Shown here one piece after another: positions 1-10,004 of a DNA stretch of 10,004 bases. This stretch comes from a virus: the UHGV virus genome UHGV-0113281. One strand, 5' to 3'. The notes beneath the pieces were generated by a model, which had not been told where the DNA came from, made no database searches, and worked only from the letters and a program-made list of their open reading frames with translations. The translations under genes were made by a program, and so were the position numbers. Each line of letters opens with the position of its first letter. Within the stretch, counting starts at the first letter, position 1.

Positions 1-145
1 GATGACGCCTGTACGCATTTGGTGATCCGGTTCTGCTTCCGGCATTCGCTTAATTCAGCACAACGGAAAGAGCACTTATGGCTCGCATCGCGGGAAAAAG
101 CCCACGGTAGAGAGTCGAACTCTACAAATGCACTTACCTGTTGTG

Positions 146-179
146 CAAACAAAAAAGCCCCGACGTTTATGCCGAGGCT
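146..179 (-). terminator. Rho-independent terminator, about 160-190 nt downstream of the Q-like gene (tR'-like)
   Basis: Seen in sequence: on the minus-strand RNA, 5'-AGCCUCGGC-AUAAAC-GUCGGGGCU-3' forms a 9-bp stem (two G-U pairs) with a 6-nt loop (plus 156-179), followed by UUUUUUGUUUG (plus 155-146). On the plus strand the same region has mismatches and no downstream T-run. Confidence 0.5.
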
Positions 180-336
180 CTTACCTAATCTAGCCAGTAT
201 GTCGACCCTAAATATTATCGGCAACCGGGGAAATCAGGATTTCAATTTCGCTGCTCAGTTCGCTTTTGCTCCGAGCATATACGAAAAATACCACTTTCAT
301 TTCTCGGAAGCAACGCATTTACAAAATTATTTCAGT

Positions 337-951
337 TCAGGCCGCTATCAATGGAAATTCTTTCTCCAATTCTCGTTTCATTGCATAAAACATTTCTGAC
401 TCCAGCACTTTCTCACACCACACCACTCGCTTACGACAATATTGAATATCAGCACCTGTTATATAAGAAATCATCCTGGCTATATCTTGCGTGCAATTGC
501 GATTGCAATATCGCTTAATAGCTACATCGCGGACGGGGCTTTCACGGTGAAAAGTCTTGACCATCACACGTTCAACGAAAGCCGCATCATCTGATTCTTT
601 GGCGAGAGTGATGATGTGGCTAAACGATGATTGAGGAATGACCAGTTCGCGAGCTTTCTTGTATAGCACATCTCCGCGCAGCCCATCTTCTTCGTACAGG
701 CGCATGACGACAGACTCTATCTGCTTAGCCTTGTCATCGCTCCACTGACTGCGAATCATCAGACGACCGATAACGTTAATTGCACCACCTGGAGAGCAAT
801 CTCCGGCATTAACCTTGCCCCATACCTGTAACATGTAATGAACCCATGCTTTCTGGCTAGAGTTGATGGTTTTCTTCGGGTGTCTCCATACGCGGCGAAA
901 GTGCGCGTCATTAATGAAGTTAACCATGCTGAATACTGGAGTTAGCCGCAT
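337..951 (-). CDS. Putative late-gene antiterminator Q-like protein (204 aa from the ATG at 951; the ORF track extends to a TTG at 981)
   Basis: Synteny: it follows ybcO-like, rusA and a small ORF, as Q does in lambdoid nin regions. The protein has a Cys cluster (YCNRNC...YCRKRVVWC) that could bind zinc. I prefer the ATG at 951 because GGAGG lies 4 nt upstream and it overlaps the TGA of the upstream small ORF (TGATG). Family assignment is from context, not from recognised sequence identity. Confidence 0.45.
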   Translation of the reverse strand: MRLTPVFSMVNFINDAHFRRVWRHPKKTINSSQKAWVHYMLQVWGKVNAGDCSPGGAINVIGRLMIRSQWSDDKAKQIESVVMRLYEEDGLRGDVLYKKARELVIPQSSFSHIITLAKESDDAAFVERVMVKTFHRESPVRDVAIKRYCNRNCTQDIARMISYITGADIQYCRKRVVWCEKVLESEMFYAMKRELEKEFPLIAA

Positions 952-1094
952 CAGACCTCCCATCCTTTGCAATGACACCAAACTTCAAACATTCGTTTCA
1001 CAATTTCACTACAGTAGAAACCTTCAACATCTCGCGTCAGGTCATAGCGATTGCCATAACGCTGGCGCATATATCGTTCGAATGCTTTGTTCAT
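951..1094 (-). CDS. Small 47-aa protein between rusA and Q (MNKAFERYMRQRYGNRYDLTRDVEGFYCSEIVKRMFEVWCHCKGWEV), absent from the ORF track
   Basis: Seen in sequence: its ATG overlaps the rusA stop (ATGA) and its TGA overlaps the Q-like start (TGATG), so it is translationally coupled on both sides. Lambdoid prophages commonly carry a tiny ORF at this position. Confidence 0.5.
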   Translation of the reverse strand: MNKAFERYMRQRYGNRYDLTRDVEGFYCSEIVKRMFEVWCHCKGWEV

Positions 1095-1453
1095 ACGTTC
1101 TCCAGTTCGGTGATTTTTATTCCAAGCCGTCCGCCTGGTACTTTCACACCACGAATTACGCGAATGTCATCGAATTGCTCGTCGTCTTCCGCAAATCCGG
1201 CGTGGATAAGGGAGTCGAGTAAACCTTTCAGGATGTTGTCGAGGTCGCGGCGGCGGGAGTCTGGAACGTCTGCGATGACTTTGATGCGGAGTCGTGATTT
1301 GGTGAAAATGTCTAACTTAAGTTGGCGGATGATTTGCTGAACGTCTTTTCGGTATTTCTGGCCTTTATCGCTGATGTAGTATTGGCTTCCCCGTCTTCGC
1401 CAGTAGGTGTTCAGCGACGGTGGGTATGGAAGCACAAACTGGTATTCGTTCAT
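1091..1453 (-). CDS. rusA: Holliday junction resolvase RusA (crossover junction endodeoxyribonuclease)
   Basis: The 120-aa translation has the RusA hallmarks: N-terminal PYPPSLNTYWRR, the catalytic acidic motif DSRRRDLDN, and C-terminal GGRLGIKITE. Length and position in the nin region match. Start overlaps the upstream stop (ATGA). Confidence 0.9.
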   Translation of the reverse strand: MNEYQFVLPYPPSLNTYWRRRGSQYYISDKGQKYRKDVQQIIRQLKLDIFTKSRLRIKVIADVPDSRRRDLDNILKGLLDSLIHAGFAEDDEQFDDIRVIRGVKVPGGRLGIKITELENV

Positions 1454-1740
1454 GACTTAATCTTCCCCTCCTTCAGCAGTATCGCCTGCGTCCTGATCAC
1501 ACCTTCGAGGTGGTAAAGTCTGGCGTCTTTGTTGTCGAGAATCCTTGTGCGTCGGTCGATCTCCGCGTGGCAGTCACTACAAGCCCATGCACCGATCAGG
1601 TCGTCAGGCTTCATTCCAGTTCCGCAAATTCCAGCCATCCGGTAATGTGCCAGAACTGTAGTTTCAGGATTTCCATTGCATACACCGTAAATACGTACCT
1701 GGCATTCTCTGCCGCGAGCTTCTTTGCGTAGGTTAGCCAT
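1450..1740 (-). CDS. ybcO: YbcO-like DUF1364-family putative nuclease (nin region)
   Basis: The 96-aa translation (MANLRKEARGRECQVRIYGVCNGNPETTVLAHYRMAGICGTG...CSDCHAEIDRRT...TQAILLKEGKIKS) closely resembles E. coli DLP12 YbcO as I recall it, with conserved Cys/His residues. It sits directly upstream of rusA as in DLP12. Start overlaps the upstream stop (TAATG). Confidence 0.85.
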   Translation of the reverse strand: MANLRKEARGRECQVRIYGVCNGNPETTVLAHYRMAGICGTGMKPDDLIGAWACSDCHAEIDRRTRILDNKDARLYHLEGVIRTQAILLKEGKIKS

Positions 1741-2468
1741 TAAGCAGCCTCCCCTGTTACTTTCAGCATTCCGTTATCGAGCAGCTTTCTGGTCAGCCAC
1801 TGTTGACCACGCCCGGTGATTTTTGTGGTGAACGATATCTGTATTCCGTGATTTGTGTTGACCGCTGTTTCTTTCACTGTGAAATAGCCGCGATCCATAT
1901 ATTCCTGCATTGGCACATTGCGCCGGGAACCTGAAGCAATAAGGATTTTGTGATCGCGCATCCACGCAAACAGTTTGTTTGGACCAATTCCAACAACCTT
2001 TGCAAAGTTTCCAATCAAAATTCCGCTGGCCTCGCCAACGCGATCGGCAAACTCAACTTTAGGTGCGGCAATTGCGAGCTGGTTTTCCAGTTGCATTTTC
2101 TGCTCAGCAAGATCAGCAGCAAGGCGCAACGCTTCTGGTAGCGTTTTGGGGATATTAACCGCAGCGTCTTCAAGCTCTCGCCAACGGTCAACAAGACGAG
2201 CGGTGAATTCCGGCGACAACTGAGCGACGACAATAATGCTGTCGCGCTTACCTTGTTCGCCTTCGAAGACGTAATGCTCGTACTGAACATTGAACCCTAA
2301 GTTATTGATTCTTTCGGAAACCTCAATTTGAGGAAGCCGGATAACACCATTTTTAGCCAGCGTTTCGATGGTACGTTTCACATTGTCATGACGCTTACCT
2401 GTAAGCTCAGCGATTTCAATGCTAGTCATTTTGATGACGTTGCTATTTATCAGCTCGTTCATTGTCAT
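1740..2468 (-). CDS. Phage antirepressor / regulatory protein with Rha-type N-terminal domain and KilA-C (ANT) C-terminal domain
   Basis: The N-terminus (MTSIEIAELTGKRHDNVKRTIETL) is typical of the phage Rha family; the C-terminal half (GILIGNFAKVVGIGPNKLFAWMRDHKILI...GYFTVKETAV) is typical of KilA-C/ANT domains. An alternative ATG at 2462 has better spacing to the GAGAGG Shine-Dalgarno. Confidence 0.8.
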   Translation of the reverse strand: MTMNELINSNVIKMTSIEIAELTGKRHDNVKRTIETLAKNGVIRLPQIEVSERINNLGFNVQYEHYVFEGEQGKRDSIIVVAQLSPEFTARLVDRWRELEDAAVNIPKTLPEALRLAADLAEQKMQLENQLAIAAPKVEFADRVGEASGILIGNFAKVVGIGPNKLFAWMRDHKILIASGSRRNVPMQEYMDRGYFTVKETAVNTNHGIQISFTTKITGRGQQWLTRKLLDNGMLKVTGEAA

Positions 2469-2492
2469 GTCCTCTCATATTGAAAATTCACC

Positions 2493-2520
2493 AATAAAAA
2501 ACCCAGCCGAAGCTGGGTTT
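2493..2520 (-). terminator. Rho-independent terminator between ant and the Rha/KilAC gene
   Basis: Seen in sequence: minus-strand RNA AACCCAGC-UUCG-GCUGGGUU (8-bp stem, UUCG tetraloop) followed by UUUUUUAUU. It is partly symmetric, so it may act in both directions. Confidence 0.6.
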
Positions 2521-2536
2521 GTTAAGTTGTCAATTG

Positions 2537-3472
2537 TCAGTAGCGATGCAGTGAAGGCGGCAACTCTTTGTTCTTAAGCCTTTCCCATGCCAGAAGGTTC
2601 GTCGGCCCGTCAGGCTCATAAATATCTATATCCCGCGTGTGATTAATTAAAACGCCCCTCGCCCTCCCGATGATATACGAGAACTCATAGCCGTAGTCGT
2701 GGCATATGCCGGAATAGTTCGATTGAATTTGTTTTAGCGCCGGATACAGTTCGCGGAATAATGCCTGTGAGCGGTTGGCATAATCCCATAACCATACAAG
2801 GCTGTTTGCTTCTTTTGCAGAAAGCTCGTTGGTTTTCTTCTCTTGTTTGCCAATGAACTCACCTTCAAGTGGAACTCGAGCTGCAAGTGACAGTGCTTCT
2901 GTAAACTGCTCCTCACTGATTTCTTTGTACGAACATCCAAAATGGGATTTCAGTGACGACCACATGGTAATCATTGCCTTCGCCTGTTTTTCTTTTGGCA
3001 GAGACTGACCGCGACTCATGACGAGTTGTTTAATGGCTTCCTGCTGTTCAGTGGTGATTTTACCCGGCAACGCCTTTTTAGCTTTGCGTGGGTTAACTAC
3101 ATGGCCTTTAGTCCAGTAGTCATGCAGCACGCTAAAGCATTCCTCCTGGTACTGAATCAGTTTATCACGGATGTCAGCACGAACTTTCTCAGGGTTGATG
3201 CTGAACAGCCATCCATTGAGTTTCTTCAGCGGTATGCATAAAAGCTTACGTAACTTGCCATCAGCGGCAACCATAGAGATATCTCTACAGTTGAATTTGT
3301 CCTTCATTTTACGCAACTTAACAGATTGACCAGTCCAGTCTATACCAATGTTTTCCACAATTTGACGCATCGCTACATAAGTCACTCCGGCAGCCACAGC
3401 GGTTAAAATCTGCTGACCATTGAAAGGCACGTAAGAGGTGTTCACTGCTTCTAAAATTGCTATACTATTCAT
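2537..3472 (-). CDS. ant: P22-type antirepressor Ant (P22_AR N- and C-terminal domains), 311 aa from the ATG at 3472; the ORF track extends to a TTG at 3502
   Basis: The N-terminus [46 protein letters not shown] is the characteristic Ant N-domain. It sits downstream of arc-like and opposite mnt-like, as in the P22 immI region. The ATG at 3472 has a GGAG about 10 nt upstream. Confidence 0.8.
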
Positions 3473-3545
3473 GTTGGTTTTTCTCCAAGGATTTACCGAC
3501 AACCGAAGCCCTGACTGTTACAGCAGTTGGGGCTTCAACTTTTAT
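3473..3545 (+). ncRNA. Candidate sar-like antisense RNA covering the ant translation-initiation region (about 70 nt)
   Basis: Seen in sequence: plus-strand extended -10 TGcTATACT (3458-3466), giving a start near 3473; plus-strand hairpin GAAGCCC...GGGCTTC (3505-3536) followed by AACTTTTAT (3537-3545). Established knowledge: P22 ant is controlled by the roughly 69-nt antisense sar RNA, which is transcribed opposite to ant and pairs with its ribosome-binding site. The call is inference from architecture only. Confidence 0.3.
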
Positions 3546-3726
3546 CAGCGCCTTCAACTGGAATACTCTCTAGCTTTTCATCTAACCCCTTCTCGCCATG
3601 CATGAAAATAACAATATCTGTAACGCATGAGTCACAAATTGCTTCTTCGGTATTTTTTGACACAACAAAGCCCCTTCCAGTCGTTTCTTTACTACACCCA
3701 CAAAAACAACATCTGCGGTTTTTCAT
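3535..3726 (-). CDS. Small (63 aa) ClpX-type C4 zinc-finger protein, inserted between arc-like and ant
   Basis: The translation MKNRRCCFCGCSKETTGRGFVVSKNTEEAICDSCVTDIV matches the ClpX N-terminal zinc-binding domain pattern (CxFCG ... ICDxCV). A strong Shine-Dalgarno (GAGGGGG) lies 7 nt upstream and the ATG overlaps the arc-like stop (ATGA). Confidence 0.6.
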   Translation of the reverse strand: MKNRRCCFCGCSKETTGRGFVVSKNTEEAICDSCVTDIVIFMHGEKGLDEKLESIPVEGADKS

Positions 3727-3875
3727 ACCACTACCCCCTCTCTCTTCAGGCTGTCCAGCAATCGCTTAATCACTTCCGAGTTAAACGACCGGCATTCTTC
3801 TTTGGCCTTTCCTGTAATCGCATCTTTTAGCGACTGAGGCATTCTCACCAAAATTCTGCTAACTTCTTTTTCCAT
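3723..3875 (-). CDS. arc: Arc-like ribbon-helix-helix repressor (50 aa from the ATG at 3875; the ORF track extends to 3911)
   Basis: MEKEVSRILVRMPQSLKDAITGKAKEECRSFNSEVIKRLLDSLKREGVVV aligns with P22 Arc (the xRMPxxL beta-strand followed by the NGRSxNSE helix motif). The ATG at 3875 has GGTGG 4 nt upstream; the upstream ATG at 3911 lies inside the predicted promoter -10 and has no Shine-Dalgarno. Confidence 0.7.
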   Translation of the reverse strand: MEKEVSRILVRMPQSLKDAITGKAKEECRSFNSEVIKRLLDSLKREGVVV

Positions 3876-3984
3876 ACCGCCACCATGTGAGTTATTGTGA
3901 ATCACAAACATATCACTGTGACTATATCAAGTCAAAATTTTTTTGAATACACTGTGATATCAATGTGATTATCACGGTGTAAGT
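3876..3984. promoter_or_regulatory. Divergent arc / mnt control region with clustered palindromic operators
   Basis: Seen in sequence: a 109-bp intergenic region with eight TGTGA / TCAC half-sites, including the palindromes TTGTGAaTCACAA (3895-3907), TCACtGTGA (3913-3921) and GTGATtATCAC (3965-3975), plus direct repeats of TGTGAT (3954, 3964). The Pmnt promoter could not be placed confidently. Confidence 0.5.
3907..3935 (-). promoter_or_regulatory. Candidate Pant-like sigma70 promoter for the arc-ZnF-ant operon
   Basis: Seen in sequence: on the minus strand, -35 TTGACT (plus 3935-3930), a 17-nt spacer, and -10 TATGTT (plus 3912-3907). The spacer contains the palindrome TCACtGTGA, matching the known placement of the Arc operator inside Pant in P22. 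Confidence 0.45.
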
Positions 3985-4239
3985 ATGACGAAGGTTAGAG
4001 ACATAGCCCCATATAGCGTAAGAATGCCAGATAGCCTCAAGCGCGACCTGACCATAAGAGCATCGAAAAACGGACGCTCATTAAATTCAGAAATAGTTAT
4101 GATCTTGCAAGCTGCTATTGATGAAGAAAAATCACCAAGATCAATAGAAGGTTTTGCTCAACAAGAATCTGAAAAATTTAGGGAGGCTCTTCTTAAGACT
4201 CTCAGTAGCATGTACGGAGAAGATAAAAAACCCACCTGA
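3985..4239 (+). CDS. mnt: Mnt-like ribbon-helix-helix repressor
   Basis: The 84-aa translation (..YSVRMPDSLKRDLTIRASKNGRSLNSEIVMILQAAI...LLKTLSSMYGEDKKPT) aligns along its length with P22 Mnt (83 aa; RMP...NGRSMNSE...DLYKKTT). It is divergent from arc-like and has a GGTG Shine-Dalgarno 5 nt upstream. Confidence 0.8.
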   Translation: MTKVRDIAPYSVRMPDSLKRDLTIRASKNGRSLNSEIVMILQAAIDEEKSPRSIEGFAQQESEKFREALLKTLSSMYGEDKKPT

Positions 4240-4249
4240 CGGCGGGTTT
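4226..4249. terminator. Hairpin terminator shared by the convergent mnt-like (+) and YafO-like (-) genes
   Basis: Seen in sequence: AAACCCACC-TGAC-GGCGGGTTT; on the minus strand the stem has one G-U pair and is followed by UUUUUUAUCUU. It overlaps both stop codons and is the stronger terminator in the minus direction. Confidence 0.5.
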
Positions 4250-4697
4250 AGTCAAACATAGTGTTTCTAAAGTCTCTCGCATACCCTGCTAACACTCTCA
4301 TTCTATTATGATTGTTAGCAGACATGTGAGCTACAGGGTGAAAAAGAGCAATCAATGAATACCTGTTCTCATCAAAAAGATTTTGTGCATAAACGAGAGC
4401 GGTATTGGATGTTTTATGCCACTGCAACTTTTGCGGTGTGCTGATATCTGTGCCATTTTTTATTGGCTCAAATTTATTTTCACCAATTGCTAAATGAAGG
4501 TGCATAAGACCTGCATCTTCAATATCAGGAGGCCGATGATAAGAGGTGTCTCTGCCAAAATAGCTGGGCAACGTTCCCGTAGACTTGTAGATGATAAAAT
4601 CATCTACAAGTGTTTGTTTTAAATCAGGAAACTCAACAAAAACCGGGGAGAAAAAATAGTCAAAACTATCCTGATTATATTCCACGGTTACTTGCAT
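4248..4697 (-). CDS. YafO-family toxin homolog (type II toxin-antitoxin toxin; ribosome-dependent mRNA interferase family)
   Basis: The 149-aa translation shares conserved blocks with E. coli YafO as I recall it: DFIIYKSTGTLPSYFGRD, MHLHLAIGEN, QKLQWHKTSNTALVYAQNLFDENRYSLIALFHP, NNHNRMRVLAGYARDFR. It starts 8 nt after the stop of the upstream gene. Confidence 0.7.
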   Translation of the reverse strand: MQVTVEYNQDSFDYFFSPVFVEFPDLKQTLVDDFIIYKSTGTLPSYFGRDTSYHRPPDIEDAGLMHLHLAIGENKFEPIKNGTDISTPQKLQWHKTSNTALVYAQNLFDENRYSLIALFHPVAHMSANNHNRMRVLAGYARDFRNTMFD

Positions 4698-4705
4698 GTT
4701 TTACC

Positions 4706-5272
4706 TCAGTGGAAGTTACCAGAGTGAAACACACGAGTCCCGTGCTCAGCAAGCGCACGCAAACCAGCCATATCTACGGAACTATCAAAAACAACCGGAA
4801 CACATGAGCGTTGTTTAATAAGACTATTCAGGTTAGTTACGGCAGATCTAGCATCAGCAACAACGATATAGATATCTCTTGCGATCTCTTTAAAATCAGC
4901 AGAAGCTTCTTTGAATACCGATTTCATTGCCCCTTCAAGTCCTCTCAATTGATGCTCTATCAATCGAGACTTTTCTGGTTCAATGATAGACAACACATTG
5001 TCTACATTCTCATCGGTAGCGTTTGCAAGAACACGATAAGCGTATTTCAGCATTCGAGACAATTCTTTAATCGAAGACACCGCCTCATGAAGCTCATCAT
5101 TAGCCCGTTCACTGCTGAATGAGGATTGATGGTAAGCGTGCTGAACGTTATCAGTAACAACCACCTCACAACTGAACGCAGAAGCTTGCTGTAATAGCAA
5201 ACCTATTGCGACTCCAGCTTTGGCAGCGTTCAAGCTAAACATTTCATCAATCCCATTAGTCTCATTGCTCAT
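4706..5272 (-). CDS. Unrecognised 188-aa protein, upstream partner of the YafO-like toxin (putative antitoxin or immunity component)
   Basis: Seen in sequence: a consensus Shine-Dalgarno AAGGAGG lies 5 nt upstream of the ATG at 5272 (the ORF track's 5302 start is an upstream extension). It appears mostly helical, with no ribbon-helix-helix, helix-turn-helix or Phd/YefM-like motif I can recognise. It is much larger than the canonical YafN antitoxin (about 97 aa). Confidence 0.65.
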   Translation of the reverse strand: MSNETNGIDEMFSLNAAKAGVAIGLLLQQASAFSCEVVVTDNVQHAYHQSSFSSERANDELHEAVSSIKELSRMLKYAYRVLANATDENVDNVLSIIEPEKSRLIEHQLRGLEGAMKSVFKEASADFKEIARDIYIVVADARSAVTNLNSLIKQRSCVPVVFDSSVDMAGLRALAEHGTRVFHSGNFH

Positions 5273-5447
5273 ACAAACCTCCTTCTTATCGGAGATTATC
5301 AATAGCTATGTATCCATTGAATACACGCTATGCGCAGTAATTCTACGTCACGTGATATCATTATGCAACCACCGTTCTATCACCGACTAACTTTACTCCC
5401 ACTCCTATACATCATCTGGTATCCTGCTCAAAACTAAGGAGGTTGGT
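5273..5447. promoter_or_regulatory. Divergent intergenic control region between the TA-like cassette (-) and the 109-aa gene (+)
   Basis: Seen in sequence: minus-strand -10 GATAAT (plus 5300-5295) with a weak -35 TTCAAT (15-nt spacer), about 20 nt upstream of the Shine-Dalgarno; the perfect palindrome TCACGTGA at 5348-5355; and a strong plus-strand Shine-Dalgarno TAAGGAGG (5435-5442) for the 109-aa gene. Confidence 0.3.
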
Positions 5448-5777
5448 GTGCTTGAATGGTTTCTGTTGGCTGCATTAGTCGTTTCTGGTTTGGTGTATGA
5501 GTATCGAATGCACTCTCTAACAAAAAAAATAGGAATTCTAGAAAACGAATATTGTGCTCTCAAATCCTCACTGGAACGTGAGCAAGGGGACTTAAAAATC
5601 TCTCTGTCTAGCATTGAGCGTTCTATAGAGAGCTTAGAGGATAAGGTTGATCGTATAAAGAATGAGGATATTCATGATATTAAGGACGACATATCCTTCT
5701 TAAAATCTTGGTTGAAAAATGTTGGGAAAATTGCCACATCAACACGAGATAAGCTCAATCCATCCATGGATGACTAA
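5448..5777 (+). CDS. Small bitopic membrane protein with a coiled-coil region (109 aa); candidate superinfection-exclusion or accessory protein
   Basis: GTG start with TAAGGAGG 5 nt upstream. N-terminal hydrophobic helix (LEWFLLAALVVSGLVY) followed by a heptad-like charged segment (LENEYCALKSSLEREQGDLKISLSSIERSIESLEDKVDRIKNE). It occupies the slot after the gp16-like gene where P22 carries sieA. Confidence 0.6.
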   Translation: MLEWFLLAALVVSGLVYEYRMHSLTKKIGILENEYCALKSSLEREQGDLKISLSSIERSIESLEDKVDRIKNEDIHDIKDDISFLKSWLKNVGKIATSTRDKLNPSMDD

Positions 5778-7946
5778 TTACTCCTGTGCCATTCCGCTTA
5801 GCGATGCCACAATTCCAGCTCTTGCTAAACGCTGGAACTCTTCGTTTCCTAGTGCCTCGCGTATTGCTTTTACGGCGGCCTTATTTGCCATAAATCTGCG
5901 TTCCGCCGCCGCTAATGCACCATCACTTGCCCCAACCTTAACTGCCTTTGTTGCCTCTTGAACAGCCTTTTCAATAGCGTAACGACCGCTTCTAGTTGCG
6001 GATAATTTCGCTATCGCTCCTTTTGCCATTGCATCAATTGCCCCACCTGCAGCGCCACCCGCTATTGCTCCAATGACGCCTCCTCCAGAGAACCCTGCGA
6101 TAGTGCCAATAGTTCTAAAAGCGCCAGACAATGCGCTCTCTAAAACTGGATGAAGGCCATTCTCAAGAGTGCTAATGGCTGGCATAGATCGCCCTGTCTG
6201 TTCAACATATCGAAGTGGCTTTGTTGCTGCTCGTGCAAGTTCTCCGTATGAACTTGTAATCCTGCCAAGATCTGGAGAATATCGACTAATTGCCTTCACG
6301 TTTTGTGGGGTAAGAATAGTCGCGATATGCTTAATTCCAGCCTCTTCAGACTTACCTCCGCGTACCCCTTGCGACATTGCATCTTGTAATATTGATGCAA
6401 TTGCTGGCGCGCGTTCCGACTCAGGTAGGGCGCTTATTATTTTATGGAACTGACCTGTTCCACTTTTTGCTGAACCCTGTAACGCCTTAGATCCATTAGT
6501 TACCAACTGATCAGTTGCAAGGTCTCTACCAAACGCTGCTTCAGCCTGTTCTTGTGCTGTAAATCTTGCCTTTGACAGATCATTAGCTTTTTGCCAGTCA
6601 TCAAGAAAACCGCCATTTTGAGCCATTATGCGCATATCTTCCGTTGCTGCATCACGAAGCTCAGCCATGCGCCTTGCCGTATTTGCCTCACCAGACCTTA
6701 TATACTTCTGCTCTGCGTCAGCAAGTTTACTTCGCCATGCCTTCATGGCATCAAACGTGATTCCTTTTTTACCAGTTTTAGCATAAGCAGATGCGAATTG
6801 TTTCATCTCAGGAGTTAGCGGCATGCCAGCCAAAATATCACCCTGAATTGTAGCGTTCAGGTTTGACATTCTGGCCTTTGCGTCAGGCATCGTGGAGCGG
6901 ACGCTATCCCATGCAGCCTTTTCTGAATTTTTCATTTTATCAATACTTGCCAAAACCCTTTGTTTTATGGCTGCACTTTTTTCTGATGCAGTTCCTGCTT
7001 CAGCCCCAAACTCATCCAATGCTGAGTTAAATTTCGACTCTATTTCACTGAATGCTTTGGTGTGTGCATCCTGTGTAATTCCGGGCTTTGACGCCAGAAT
7101 CCCCTCCGCCTGAGCAAGACCACGACTACCTGATCTCATGCCAGGAGTTAATGCGTTGATATCTATTCCAGCAGTATCTGCTGCTTTTGCTATTTCGTCT
7201 GACACATTAGCTGACTGTCTGGCAATAATCTCTCTTCCTGTACCAGACTTTGCCATTTTCGAAACATCAGCAGCGGAATTTATTGCCCCGCCACCAAGAA
7301 CTTGAGGTGATTTAGAGGTTAAGATCCTTCCAGCCCCAGAAAGTATCCCCTGAGCACCAATATTGATACCACCGTTAATGGCAGCATTTTGTGCAAAATC
7401 ACCCTCCTGATTTGCAGCATCAGCAAGAGAACCGGCAATCATGTTACCTGCGGAACCGATGTCTCCTGAGAGCTTTGCTGGCGCTCCAGCAGCTTTTGCT
7501 GCTGTGCCAATTGGCAGGAGGTACCCACCAATTGTTTCACCGGCTTGCGCGTAAGGGTCTGTCGGTCGATCGACTGGACGATAGACATCATCCAATACTT
7601 TTGGCCCACCAAGCCCCTGACTGATTGCATTAATCAGACTTGCGCCACCCTGCAATACGTCAAATGGTATGTTTACCAGACCACGACCAGCCTGTTCTGC
7701 AATTTGCCCTGCACTTTGACCACCAGTGAGCCAATCGCCAGCTTGTTGCATCAATGATGGTTCTTCTTTCTGCTGCTGAGGCGGAGGGTATGCTGCATAA
7801 AACTGATCTCTTGCTTCAGCCCATTTGTCACCAGCCTTAGGGGCAACAACCTCATCAAAATATTGCGCTTGAGCCTGTGCTTTCTGTTCTTCAGTTAACG
7901 CCTGATACTGTGGAGAAGCGATAACATCTTTCCATGCTTTAGCCAT
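5778..7946 (-). CDS. Putative ejection / internal virion protein, P22 gp16-like (722 aa)
   Basis: Last and largest of three consecutive Ala/Gly/Gln-rich low-complexity proteins, located immediately before the immI-like module, matching the P22 7-20-16 order. Start overlaps the upstream stop (TAATG). The call rests on synteny and composition. Confidence 0.5.
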
Positions 7947-9295
7947 TAATCACCCCATAAAGACGAGAAACCGGACTTATTGCTGTCGCTTCCTGATTTT
8001 CGCTCACTAACATATGTGTCATAACCTGATGAACTGTATCCCATTGATTCAGCCTCCCTTGCTGCAACCTTTTGAAATACAGAATATTGAGATCGTATTT
8101 CAGATAACTGTTTTCTGACGACCTCTTCAGGCTGTGTTATATCGAGTTTCGCGATCAGGTTTTCCAGTTTTTGGCCTTCAGCATTGGAGAGGCTACCCAT
8201 ACCTCGCATAGTCTGCACGTTCTGGACAAACGCACCCGACTTTAATTCTTCTATCGCATTACGGTTTGCAAGCCCTTCAGCACTTGTGAAGCCATCTATA
8301 TTTCTTCCTTCGAAGCGACCGATACCTTCAAGCTCCTTCTTACCAAGCAAAGAATCTATTTTCTCTATCCCTCGCTCACCAGTAATCAACGCATTGTTGT
8401 AATTATTGTTGCCATCAAGCCATCTCTTAGCCTGAGACATTCTGGCTGACGTTGCAGCTTTACCGGTTAGAGGATCAATTCCCGTCGCTGCTATCTGTGA
8501 GTTAAGAGACAAAACATCCATATCCTGAAGTTGTCCTGCTCTTTCAAGGGCCGCCTGTGACTGCTTAAACACATACTTGTCGTGATTCAGTCTTGCCATT
8601 TGAGCCTTATAGGAAAGATCCTGCCCCCTAATAGCCCTCGCATTCGTCATGTCATTATTGCGAATGGTTTCGTTAATTCTTTGCTGCTCCTGCTGGCGAC
8701 CAACCATCTTGTCCTGAACAGCAAACGCCTTTTCTGGCCCAAGCGCACCGAGAGACATAGTAGTCAGCATGTGTGATAGCTGCTCTGGATTCTGGATACC
8801 TGTCTGAATCATCCAGTCAGCATTCGCACCCACGCGATTTAACCTGTCCTTGTTGTCAGTAATGAATTTACTGTAGGCTTCCGGTCCCTGAGAAAGAGCG
8901 ACGTTAGCCCTCATGGCTAAATCGCCCATATCGTTGCGTTGCTGATCATTAAGACCGGAAAACGCCTGTTGTGCCTGTGCAACAAACGCTGGATTTTCCT
9001 GGGCAAACTTAAATAGTCCCGATGGATCACCAGAAGCCCATGCATCAGCGTGAACCTTATTGAACGCACTAATAGCTTTCTGTTGCTGTTCCTGATTGTA
9101 AATATCAGCAACTCCAGCCAGACCACGTAACGCGGTCAGGCCAACGTTATTTGCACCTGAGCGAGCCAGTTCATTGTTTTCGCGGATCAGACCAAGCGTT
9201 GCGTTAATGTCGCTTGCCTTTGGCGCATTCTCATTTTGCGTACCGATGCCAGCCAGAAAACCACCAGAATTAATACCCTGTTGCCACGTAGCCAT
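7946..9295 (-). CDS. Putative ejection / DNA-transfer protein, P22 gp20-like (449 aa)
   Basis: Middle gene of the three-gene block; its size is close to P22 gp20 (471 aa); Gln/Asn/Ala-rich. Synteny-based call. Confidence 0.5.
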
Positions 9296-9305
9296 TGATT
9301 ACCCC

Positions 9306-9998
9306 TTAAAACAACGAGCCAAGCAGACCAAGACCAGCACCGATACCAGCACCCCACGGAGTTGATAGCTCGAGAGCACTGGCTATGCCACCACCCAAAA
9401 GCGCACCGGATGCAGCACCACTAACCCCCTGCTGCAATGCTGACGGTCGGTTGGCGTTTGCCGCTGCAAGAGCCGCGCTTTGCTGTGAAATCTGACTCAT
9501 GTTGTTGGCGTATGTCTGCCCGGCGTTTGCCTGCCCCTGAAGAGCGCCAAGACCGATATTTGCCAGGTTGTTGTAATTGTTCATTTGTCCAGATAGCCAT
9601 TGCTGACCAAGCGTTGGTGCGATTGTTGCTAACTGATTACTGGTTGCTGTAGAGCCTAATCCACCCGTTGCCTCTGCTGCTGCCAGACTCTGGTAACGCG
9701 CCTGACCAGCAAGATCTTTGTACTGCTGAGAGTTGTAATACTGGTTAAGTGCCTGACCTTGCCCTTCCAGAGACGATAAGTTCTCGAGGCTGCCGACATA
9801 CTTATCAGCCAGAGGAGTAAACGGCTTCAGGTTGTTCATGATGGTGTTGAACTGCTGATTTTGCAGGTCTGCGGCATACTTCTGAGCTTCTGCTGCATAC
9901 TTTGCGCTTTTATCAGAGCTGCCACCTTTCCCACCCTTTTCAGGGCAATAAGGTTCCTCGCCGCGCAGTTTTCTGCCCAGCTTAAATGCATATAACAT
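9306..9998 (-). CDS. Putative ejection protein, P22 gp7-like (230 aa)
   Basis: Size matches P22 gp7 (229 aa). Basic N-terminal leader (MLYAFKLGRKLRGEE...), Gln/Asn/Ala/Gly-rich body and glycine-rich hydrophobic C-terminus (GAGIGAGLGLLGSLF). First gene of the 7-20-16-like block. The ATG is 6 nt from the window edge, so the upstream signals are not visible. Confidence 0.55.
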   Translation of the reverse strand: MLYAFKLGRKLRGEEPYCPEKGGKGGSSDKSAKYAAEAQKYAADLQNQQFNTIMNNLKPFTPLADKYVGSLENLSSLEGQGQALNQYYNSQQYKDLAGQARYQSLAAAEATGGLGSTATSNQLATIAPTLGQQWLSGQMNNYNNLANIGLGALQGQANAGQTYANNMSQISQQSAALAAANANRPSALQQGVSGAASGALLGGGIASALELSTPWGAGIGAGLGLLGSLF

Positions 9999-10004
9999 GG
10001 CTAT

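Follow-up and report, generated by a model that had tools for sequence, protein, structure and literature searches.

A Probable Repeat-Mediated Mis-Join Inside an Antirepressor Gene Links P22-Like immI and nin-Region Genes in a Metagenome Contig

The window analyzed here, 10,004 bp in length, corresponds to a single complete metagenome contig (NODE_3042_length_10004_cov_5.352196, ENA assembly ERZ1756037), which is SPAdes-style and has a k-mer coverage of 5.35. In this contig, P22-like late and immI genes stand next to nin-region genes in an order that is abnormal but probably not biological. On base-by-base comparison with its closest relatives, the window is a nin arm joined to an immI arm somewhere within positions 2613-2717, inside the antirepressor gene ant. 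The contig is best explained as a repeat-mediated mis-join, most likely an error of assembly, in which case the join would not be a real feature of any phage. A preliminary description of this DNA had proposed a synteny break at 2468-2537, in the gap between ant and roi, had counted among its possible causes a large deletion across tandem prophages and an element that is degenerate or satellite-like, and had asked for an assembly artefact to be ruled out. Both this caution and the abnormality of the overall order, as noted there, stand, whereas the break lies elsewhere and these causes find no support.

Gene Content of the Contig

All convincing genes lie on the minus strand, except for mnt and a 109-aa hkcB-like ORF, which are on the plus strand (Table 1). 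Matches to Pfam, PHROG, and Rfam bear out the gene identities assigned in the preliminary description, namely gp7/gp20/gp16, immI, roi, ybcO, rusA, and a Q-like gene; by their domain matches, gp7, gp20, and gp16 are all P22-type. Relatives of each arm were found through exact-protein look-ups, with Roi leading to loci L182-L191 and gp16 to loci L194-L198, and were then compared with the window base by base.

TABLE 1. Features of the 10,004-bp window and the evidence for each.
Feature	Position	Strand	Evidence
Terminator-like hairpin 3' of Q, candidate tR'	153..182	-	pattern scan only
Q-like late antiterminator, 204 aa	337..951	-	PHROG 753 'anti-termination protein Q-like', E = 7e-67
47-aa ORF at ninH position	951..1094	-	PHROG 3871, E = 2e-30; also in L183-L190
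rusA, Holliday-junction resolvase, 120 aa	1091..1453	-	PF05866 RusA
ybcO/hkbD, DUF1364, 96 aa	1450..1740	-	PF07102 YbcO; PHROG 131
roi, 240 aa	1740..2462	-	Pfam Phage_pRha + ANT/KilAC
Intrinsic terminator after ant, inside the gap	2499..2520	-	9-bp stem, UUCG loop, U tract
ant, antirepressor, 311 aa	2537..3472	-	Pfam P22_AR_N + P22_AR_C
Stretch identical in both source contexts, with the join inside	2613..2717		L196/L182 mismatch maps
sar antisense RNA of immI	3473..3540	+	Rfam RF00262, 94 bits vs gathering score 43, full-length
CxxC...CxxC ORF between arc and ant, 63 aa	3535..3726	-	PHROG 7150, E = 6e-8
Arc repressor, 50 aa from internal ATG	3723..3875	-	Pfam Arc, E = 2e-11
Mnt-like Arc/RHH repressor, 84 aa	3985..4239	+	Pfam Arc, E = 7e-9, plus FitA-like_RHH
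YafO-family toxin-like protein, 149 aa	4248..4697	-	Pfam YafO_toxin, E = 3.4e-22
188-aa protein	4706..5272	-	PHROG 8416, E = 2e-96
hkcB-like ORF of the ant moron, 109 aa	5448..5777	+	PHROG 5962, E = 2e-61
gp16, ejection protein, 722 aa	5778..7946	-	PF26808 Phage_P22_gp16
gp20, ejection protein, 449 aa	7946..9295	-	PF16928 Inj_translocase
gp7, P22-type DNA ejection protein, 230 aa	9306..9998	-	Pfam P22_gp7, E = 2.9e-132, full length

The right-hand part of the window is organized like the immI regions of P22-like phages (P22, epsilon34, CUS-3, and HK620 relatives), in which mnt, arc, the sar RNA, ant, and a terminator come after gene 16. In the window, mnt, arc, sar, and a two-domain ant were found directly downstream of genes 7, 20, and 16, and the gene string from gp7 to the 311-aa Ant is the same as that of L194-L198. 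The Mnt-like gene is divergently oriented, like mnt of P22. The Arc ORF extends to 3911, and in L194-L198 Arc is called as a 50-aa protein. Several genes of this part also have close relatives elsewhere. For example, the 63-aa CxxC...CxxC ORF is 100% identical at the DNA level to a P22-like prophage of strain P393-F10, and the 188-aa gene shares 99.1% DNA identity with a CUS-3-like prophage remnant (L007). The 109-aa hkcB-like gene is present in L194-L198 as well, and its counterpart in CUS-3 is annotated as hkcB. In the ant moron of the window, the YafO-like and 188-aa genes replace sieA, which fits the mobility and high genetic flux of this region in P22-like phages (PMC2629481).

The departure from the P22-like arrangement comes after ant. 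The exact gp16 protein occurs on L194-L198, according to the exact-protein look-up, in a normal order that ends with ant and the tailspike gene; in L194, host tor genes lie beyond the latter. The exact gp20 protein was found in 923 index blocks, and wherever ant was present among the matches listed, the tailspike gene was next. All P22-like genomes examined have the tailspike gene next to ant of immI on its downstream side, as the preliminary description had stated; in the window, roi follows instead.

On the other side of the join, the 3' end of a P22_AR_C gene, a terminator-containing gap, roi, ybcO, rusA, and Q are contiguous. The exact 240-aa Roi protein, for which an in-frame ATG at 2468 offers an alternative start giving 242 aa, was found on at least 24 contigs, where an ORF6N/P22_AR_C ant-like gene always precedes it. 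Loci L182-L191 are complete P22-like phage genomes encoding Terminase_3, P22_portal, and P22_CoatProtein, and their nin order is NinE, a 227-aa ORF6N/P22_AR_C gene, Roi, YbcO, RusA, the 47-aa gene, the 204-aa Q, and holin. In L182-L190, the Q-like gene is followed by holin, lysozyme, and Rz, and after these lysis genes by P22-type head genes; the candidate tR' hairpin corresponds in position to the region between Q and holin in L182. In these genomes, ejection and immI genes are located ~14-21 kb downstream of roi, whereas those of the window lie upstream of it. Likewise, NinE precedes the ant-roi block in L182-L190 and in Sakai; in the window, ninB/ninE and replication genes are absent ahead of the block, and the immI and ejection genes are found upstream. 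No tailspike gene, att, integrase, or early genes were found within the 10,004 bp. Because the window is an entire metagenome contig, the lack of these elements is uninformative about the source genome.

Position of the Source Change

The two arms have different closest relatives, and the mismatch maps place the change between them precisely. The left arm (window 1-2717) is 100% identical, in several independent assemblies, to P22-like prophages of the L182-L190 group that carry a second, nin-region ant-like gene (e.g., GCA_017732955.1 and GCA_038410915.1): there are no mismatches to L182, L185, L186, L188, or L190 until 2718, and L182 then differs from the window at 22 positions over 2718-2834. 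The right arm (2613-10004) differs from L196 at only three positions (7647, 7662, and 7695), corresponding to 99.96% identity. No mismatch to L196 occurs over 2613-7646, as against 25 over 2519-2612. A further locus, L198, matches window 2688-7947 and has the same three mismatches as L196. The longest exact run common to L196 and L182 is the 105 bp at 2613-2717, which is the sole long one. The join is in frame and falls in ant at about where the P22_AR_C domain has its C-terminal end, leaving an intact hybrid ORF whose last ~60 codons are from the nin-region copy.

Two other placements of the break were discarded. One at 2467-2495, obtained with HK620 and 611R6 as references, was ruled out because both lack a nin-region ant copy. 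Another, confined to the 11-bp interval 2707-2717 by RM10410 and LSC52, was superseded once the closer relatives L196 and L182 showed that 105 bp are shared. An 11-bp shared interval would have counted against a k-mer-graph artefact.

The Gap Between ant and roi

The gap at 2468-2537 is a conserved ant terminator located 5' of roi, in its native nin-region context, and no break falls there. The 69-bp gap does contain a terminator between ant and roi, as had been described, with a fold energy of -21.7 kcal/mol (z = -3.85). The 23-bp core of this terminator (2496-2518) is identical in immI and nin contexts, and the homologous gap in the CUS-3 record carries the annotation 'bsq1 boundary sequence'. 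A 171-bp probe covering the 3' end of ant, the gap, and the 5' end of roi (window 2400-2570) had uninterrupted matches, at 90-99% identity, in 515 of the 5426 complete E. coli genomes and in 177 phage records. Its carriers include VT2-Sakai, JLK-2012, Lahn2, Nil2, and many Stx1a and Stx2a phages, and the identity of this segment to VT2-Sakai, phi24B/Min27, JLK-2012, Lahn2, and Nil2 is 96-99%. With the probe contiguous in so many genomes and the source change located inside ant, the synteny break has to be moved out of the gap.

The gene pair flanking the gap is equally ordinary. In the nin block of Stx and other lambdoid phages (VT2-Sakai, phi24B/Min27, JLK-2012, Lahn2, and Nil2), as in the window, a P22_AR_C gene is followed by a ~70-bp terminator gap and roi, with nin genes and Q downstream of roi. 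The location of Roi downstream of Ant, in a conserved context, has been reported for Stx phages (Smith et al., 2012, PMC3430580). Since an ant-type gene followed by roi is standard in Stx nin regions, the back-to-back Ant/Roi pair is native to these phages and to some P22-like prophages, and the earlier suggestion that the junction had brought two unrelated antirepressors together can be set aside. The difference lies upstream: in Stx and other lambdoid phages, the gene ahead of ant is ninE, or else a P63C gene with an Arc-family repressor gene, whereas in the window gp16 and a P22-type ant moron come before it.

Uniqueness of the Join

The join was encountered only in this contig. The hybrid Ant protein is a singleton whose public record comes from this contig alone. 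A 43-bp pattern over the 2717/2718 boundary had no matches in IMG/VR, GTDB genomes, or JGI metagenomes, and the two parental patterns matched 82 and 88 IMG/VR loci. Among 160 IMG/VR loci examined that have the parental patterns, none contained roi and gp16 together. For window 2540-2900, no complete E. coli genome or phage record exceeded 93.1% identity. Finally, the full order gp7-gp20-gp16-immI-ant-roi-rusA-Q was absent from every intact phage and genome searched. The comparisons show precisely where each source ends, how both are normally arranged in other assemblies, and that the join is unique.

Two candidates for a similar arrangement were rejected. DP051, which a whole-window megablast seemed to cover over 1089-10004, is a P22-like prophage with Q fused to gp14 in which the tailspike gene still follows ant. 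FDAARGOS_1300 is an IS3-mediated deletion remnant with another junction and another gene order.

Origin of the Two Arms

Both arms appear to come from one ordinary P22-like prophage lineage. The left-arm sources L182/L186 overlap the right-arm sources L194/L195 over 3957 bp, spanning terminase, portal, scaffold, and coat genes, with 100.000% identity, so that the two sets of sources look like two parts of a single phage lineage. In addition, the coordinates of left- and right-arm source records, as derived from contig ranges, are collinear within 160 bp. The simplest picture would be that one prophage has the ant 3' part and its terminator twice, as direct copies ~21 kb apart, where the co-residence of the copies rests on the head-gene overlap and on the near-identical record coordinates of two contigs. 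A single prophage with two direct ant-3' copies, 29 kb apart, is known in LZSFT34. No P22-like prophage with both copies was present among the 15 best-scoring complete RefSeq E. coli matches, of which the P22-like ones begin at roi and have no ant-like gene. NZ_CP173573 has the nin-region copy together with a non-P22 late region.

In L194, the two ant 3' copies are only ~80% identical. In L196, the immI ant carries a nin-type patch exactly at 2613-2717. This patch, apparently a product of ectopic gene conversion, gives rise to the exact repeat of 105 bp.

Origin of the Join

In the explanation that is best supported, the source would be an ordinary P22-like prophage in which the 3' part of an antirepressor gene, encoding P22_AR_C, and its terminator are present as two direct copies. 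The first copy would end the immI ant, with the tailspike gene next; the second would end the nin-region ORF6N/P22_AR_C ant-like gene, with roi, ybcO, rusA, and Q after it. In the variant nearest to that in the sample, the copies would share the 105 identical bases at 2613-2717. At ~5x coverage, the assembler may have entered this repeat from the immI side and exited on the nin side, fusing regions that lie ~21 kb apart in the phage. We infer that the join was made in the assembler and not in a cell, and that both copies were in one genome of the sample.

Several lines of evidence argue for such a mis-join. Low-coverage genomes, including a 5x spike-in, were prone to chimeric contigs in all assemblers tested in a previous study, metaSPAdes included, and the repeat-induced chimeric contigs of low-coverage metagenomes resemble the window in having a join in an exact repeat, a depth of ~5x, and normal flanks (PMC7881036). 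In the window, the source switches within a 105-bp exact repeat, and the arms are 100% and 99.96% identical to normal genomes. This repeat is longer than the usual largest k of SPAdes-type assemblers, which counts for an artefact. Moreover, L198, an independent Logan contig, ends 30 nt into the repeat, at 2688, which fits the branching of a k=31 graph at the repeat edge. On the opposing side, paired-end data often let metaSPAdes break at a repeat of this kind, and the natural patch at 2613-2717 in L196 makes a real crossover there mechanistically plausible.

Such a crossover, in which the ant copy of immI and the ant-like copy of the nin region would truly have undergone ectopic homologous recombination through their 105 shared bp, is conceivable but unlikely. 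Four routes could be envisaged: a tandem duplication of the roi-to-ant segment (~21-24 kb) by unequal sister exchange; an excised, non-replicating circle from a deletion between the direct repeats; a deleted unit within a replicating concatemer; or an inversion or deletion, if each copy belonged to its own prophage on the same chromosome. The crossover is in register, and Ant remains a complete 311-aa protein that has both domains. The perfectly identical 105 bp suffice for RecA or phage recombinases, and these prophages encode ERF-family recombinase proteins. Furthermore, the patch in L196 looks like a natural gene conversion at the same 105 bp, the ant 3' alleles are visibly mosaic across contexts, and single prophages with two direct copies exist, as in LZSFT34. 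However, the join is unique among all collections searched. With both copies in one phage, a chromosome that underwent a simple deletion would not retain such a junction; its carrier could only be an unstable duplication or a non-replicating circle, and either would need near-fixation to assemble at the ~5x depth of the phage. The product, with neither tailspike gene nor replication genes nor integrase, would also be incapable of phage propagation. Because a duplication, circle, or concatemer unit should not reach phage depth, the mis-join is favored over a real recombination product.

It is more doubtful still that the halves came from two co-resident phages or strains, a P22-like prophage and an Stx-like or other lambdoid phage with a nin-region ant-roi block, and became fused where both have the ant segment, whether by the assembler or in vivo. 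The nin region of the Stx1a prophage in strain RM10410 and ~80 IMG/VR loci do match window 2425-2717 at 100% identity, and the ant-roi block occurs in 515 complete E. coli genomes. Yet for the left arm as a whole, with its Q-like gene and Q-to-holin spacer, 100% identity is confined to the P22-like prophages L182, L185, L186, L188, and L190, and RM10410 is just 91% identical to the window over 1072-3211. Given that the head genes of these P22-like prophages and of the right-arm sources are 100% identical, one genome is the simpler source.

The causes considered in the preliminary description, in which late and immI genes would truly abut nin genes in a satellite-like or degenerate element or after a large deletion across tandem prophages, are very improbable: the window itself has no tailspike gene, att, integrase, or early genes and P22-like deletion derivatives exist (DP051 and FDAARGOS_1300), but these differ in junction and gene order, the 10-kb window contains none of the integrase, primase/replication gene, or AlpA-type regulator expected of a P4-like or PICI satellite, all ORFs are intact and the arms, being 99.96-100% identical to intact prophages, show no sign of decay, and both arms match one apparent P22-like lineage and meet in homologous sequence, the 105-bp repeat, rather than at the end of an illegitimate deletion.

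Implications for P22-Like Phages and Their Metagenomic Contigs

If the recombination were real, P22-like prophages with a second, nin-region P22_AR_C gene would recombine ectopically between the copies. The outcomes would be gene-conversion patches, such as that in L196, and occasionally a roi-to-ant duplication or a ~24-kb circle holding late, structural, and immI genes only. The contig would then provide a concrete, datable case of intragenomic repeats rearranging a temperate phage, although, among the known lambdoid modules, the join would count as only another product of homologous recombination.

If, as is considerably more probable, the join is an assembly error, the main value of the finding is a caution for short-read contigs that cross the ant cassette. 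This cassette and its terminator were seen in at least three phage contexts, i.e., the gp16-tailspike interval of P22-like phages, the position before roi in the nin region, and the L-K tail gene interval of lambda-like phages, and the cassette can occur twice per genome. A public protein collection already lists the hybrid Ant of this contig as a singleton. With a cassette that occupies several contexts, sometimes twice in the same genome, short-read contigs can fake synteny breaks, hybrid antirepressors, and 'novel' elements.

Ant Copies and Placement of the Cassette

An exchange between the two ant-related copies is suggested by L196, a P22-like prophage locus in which ant is followed by the tailspike gene as usual. 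Base-by-base comparison aligned L196 7350-7573 with window positions 2496-2720. Over a patch of 105 bp (window 2613-2717), the immI ant of L196 matches the nin-region copy exactly; on either side of it the sequence is of the immI type, and the gene order of the prophage is normal. On sequence comparison, the patch looks like the product of ectopic gene conversion between the two copies.

Immunity-I-like cassettes were also found inserted between the lambda-like tail genes L and K in phage PhiR12_1 and E. coli LZSFT34. The LZSFT34 cassette is annotated as encoding an Arc-family repressor, a ClpP-like protein, a small ORF and Ant; that of PhiR12_1 shares this layout, with its ORFs mostly unannotated. 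In the LZSFT34 prophage, another ant-like gene lies 29 kb away in direct orientation, upstream of roi.

Gene Content of the Window

Within the ant moron, the translation start of ant is covered by the sar antisense RNA, the terminator hairpin of which (3505-3536) overlaps the end of a 63-aa ORF. This ORF is kept in several P22-like prophages, and one record annotates it as a "ClpX C4-type zinc finger protein". Where sieA would be, the window instead has a YafO-family toxin-like gene, for which no obvious antitoxin partner was found, and a 188-aa gene; CUS-3-like prophages possess a related pair, but on the opposite strand.

For roi, two in-frame ATG codons are available, at 2468 (upstream) and 2462. 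No record exactly matches the 242-aa protein from the former, and the 240-aa protein from the latter is present on at least 24 contigs (exact-protein look-up). In the Q-to-holin spacer (window 1-336), a terminator-like hairpin is likely tR'; the 126-aa plus-strand ORF that the public record lists as a gene is probably not genuine.

Features of the window and of the cassettes in tail-gene regions
Feature	Locus	Coordinates	Strand	Remark
Terminator-like hairpin	window	153-182	-	pattern scan
126-aa ORF	window	19-399	+
sar antisense RNA	window	3473-3540	+	Rfam RF00262, 94 bits, full-length
63-aa ORF	window	3535-3726	-	two CxxC pairs; between arc and ant
YafO-family toxin-like and 188-aa genes	window	4248-5272	-	188-aa gene, PHROG 8416
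immI-like cassette, PhiR12_1	L180	7000-9010
immI-like cassette, LZSFT34	L193	6337-8349

Ejection Genes and Contig Ends

In L202 (GCA_007862245.2, CP082540.1:142994-164343; locus of interest 1-16500), a satellite- or P4-like module, comprising an integrase, AlpA, AntA, Phage_ASH and a Zn_Ribbon_Prim/Toprim_3/DUF5906 primase, is directly followed by the exact gp20 of the window and a 701-aa gp16 homologue, beyond which comes a PerC-like gene; no further P22 structural genes lie close by. This is one of the places returned by the exact gp20 look-up; there are 12 similar ones besides.

Two independent Logan contigs of normally ordered P22-like prophages, L197 and L198, both start at window 7947, the exact gp20/gp16 boundary, and L198 ends at window 2688, 30 nt into the ant repeat. 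These shared starts and this end suggest recurrent graph branch points in this P22-like phage family.
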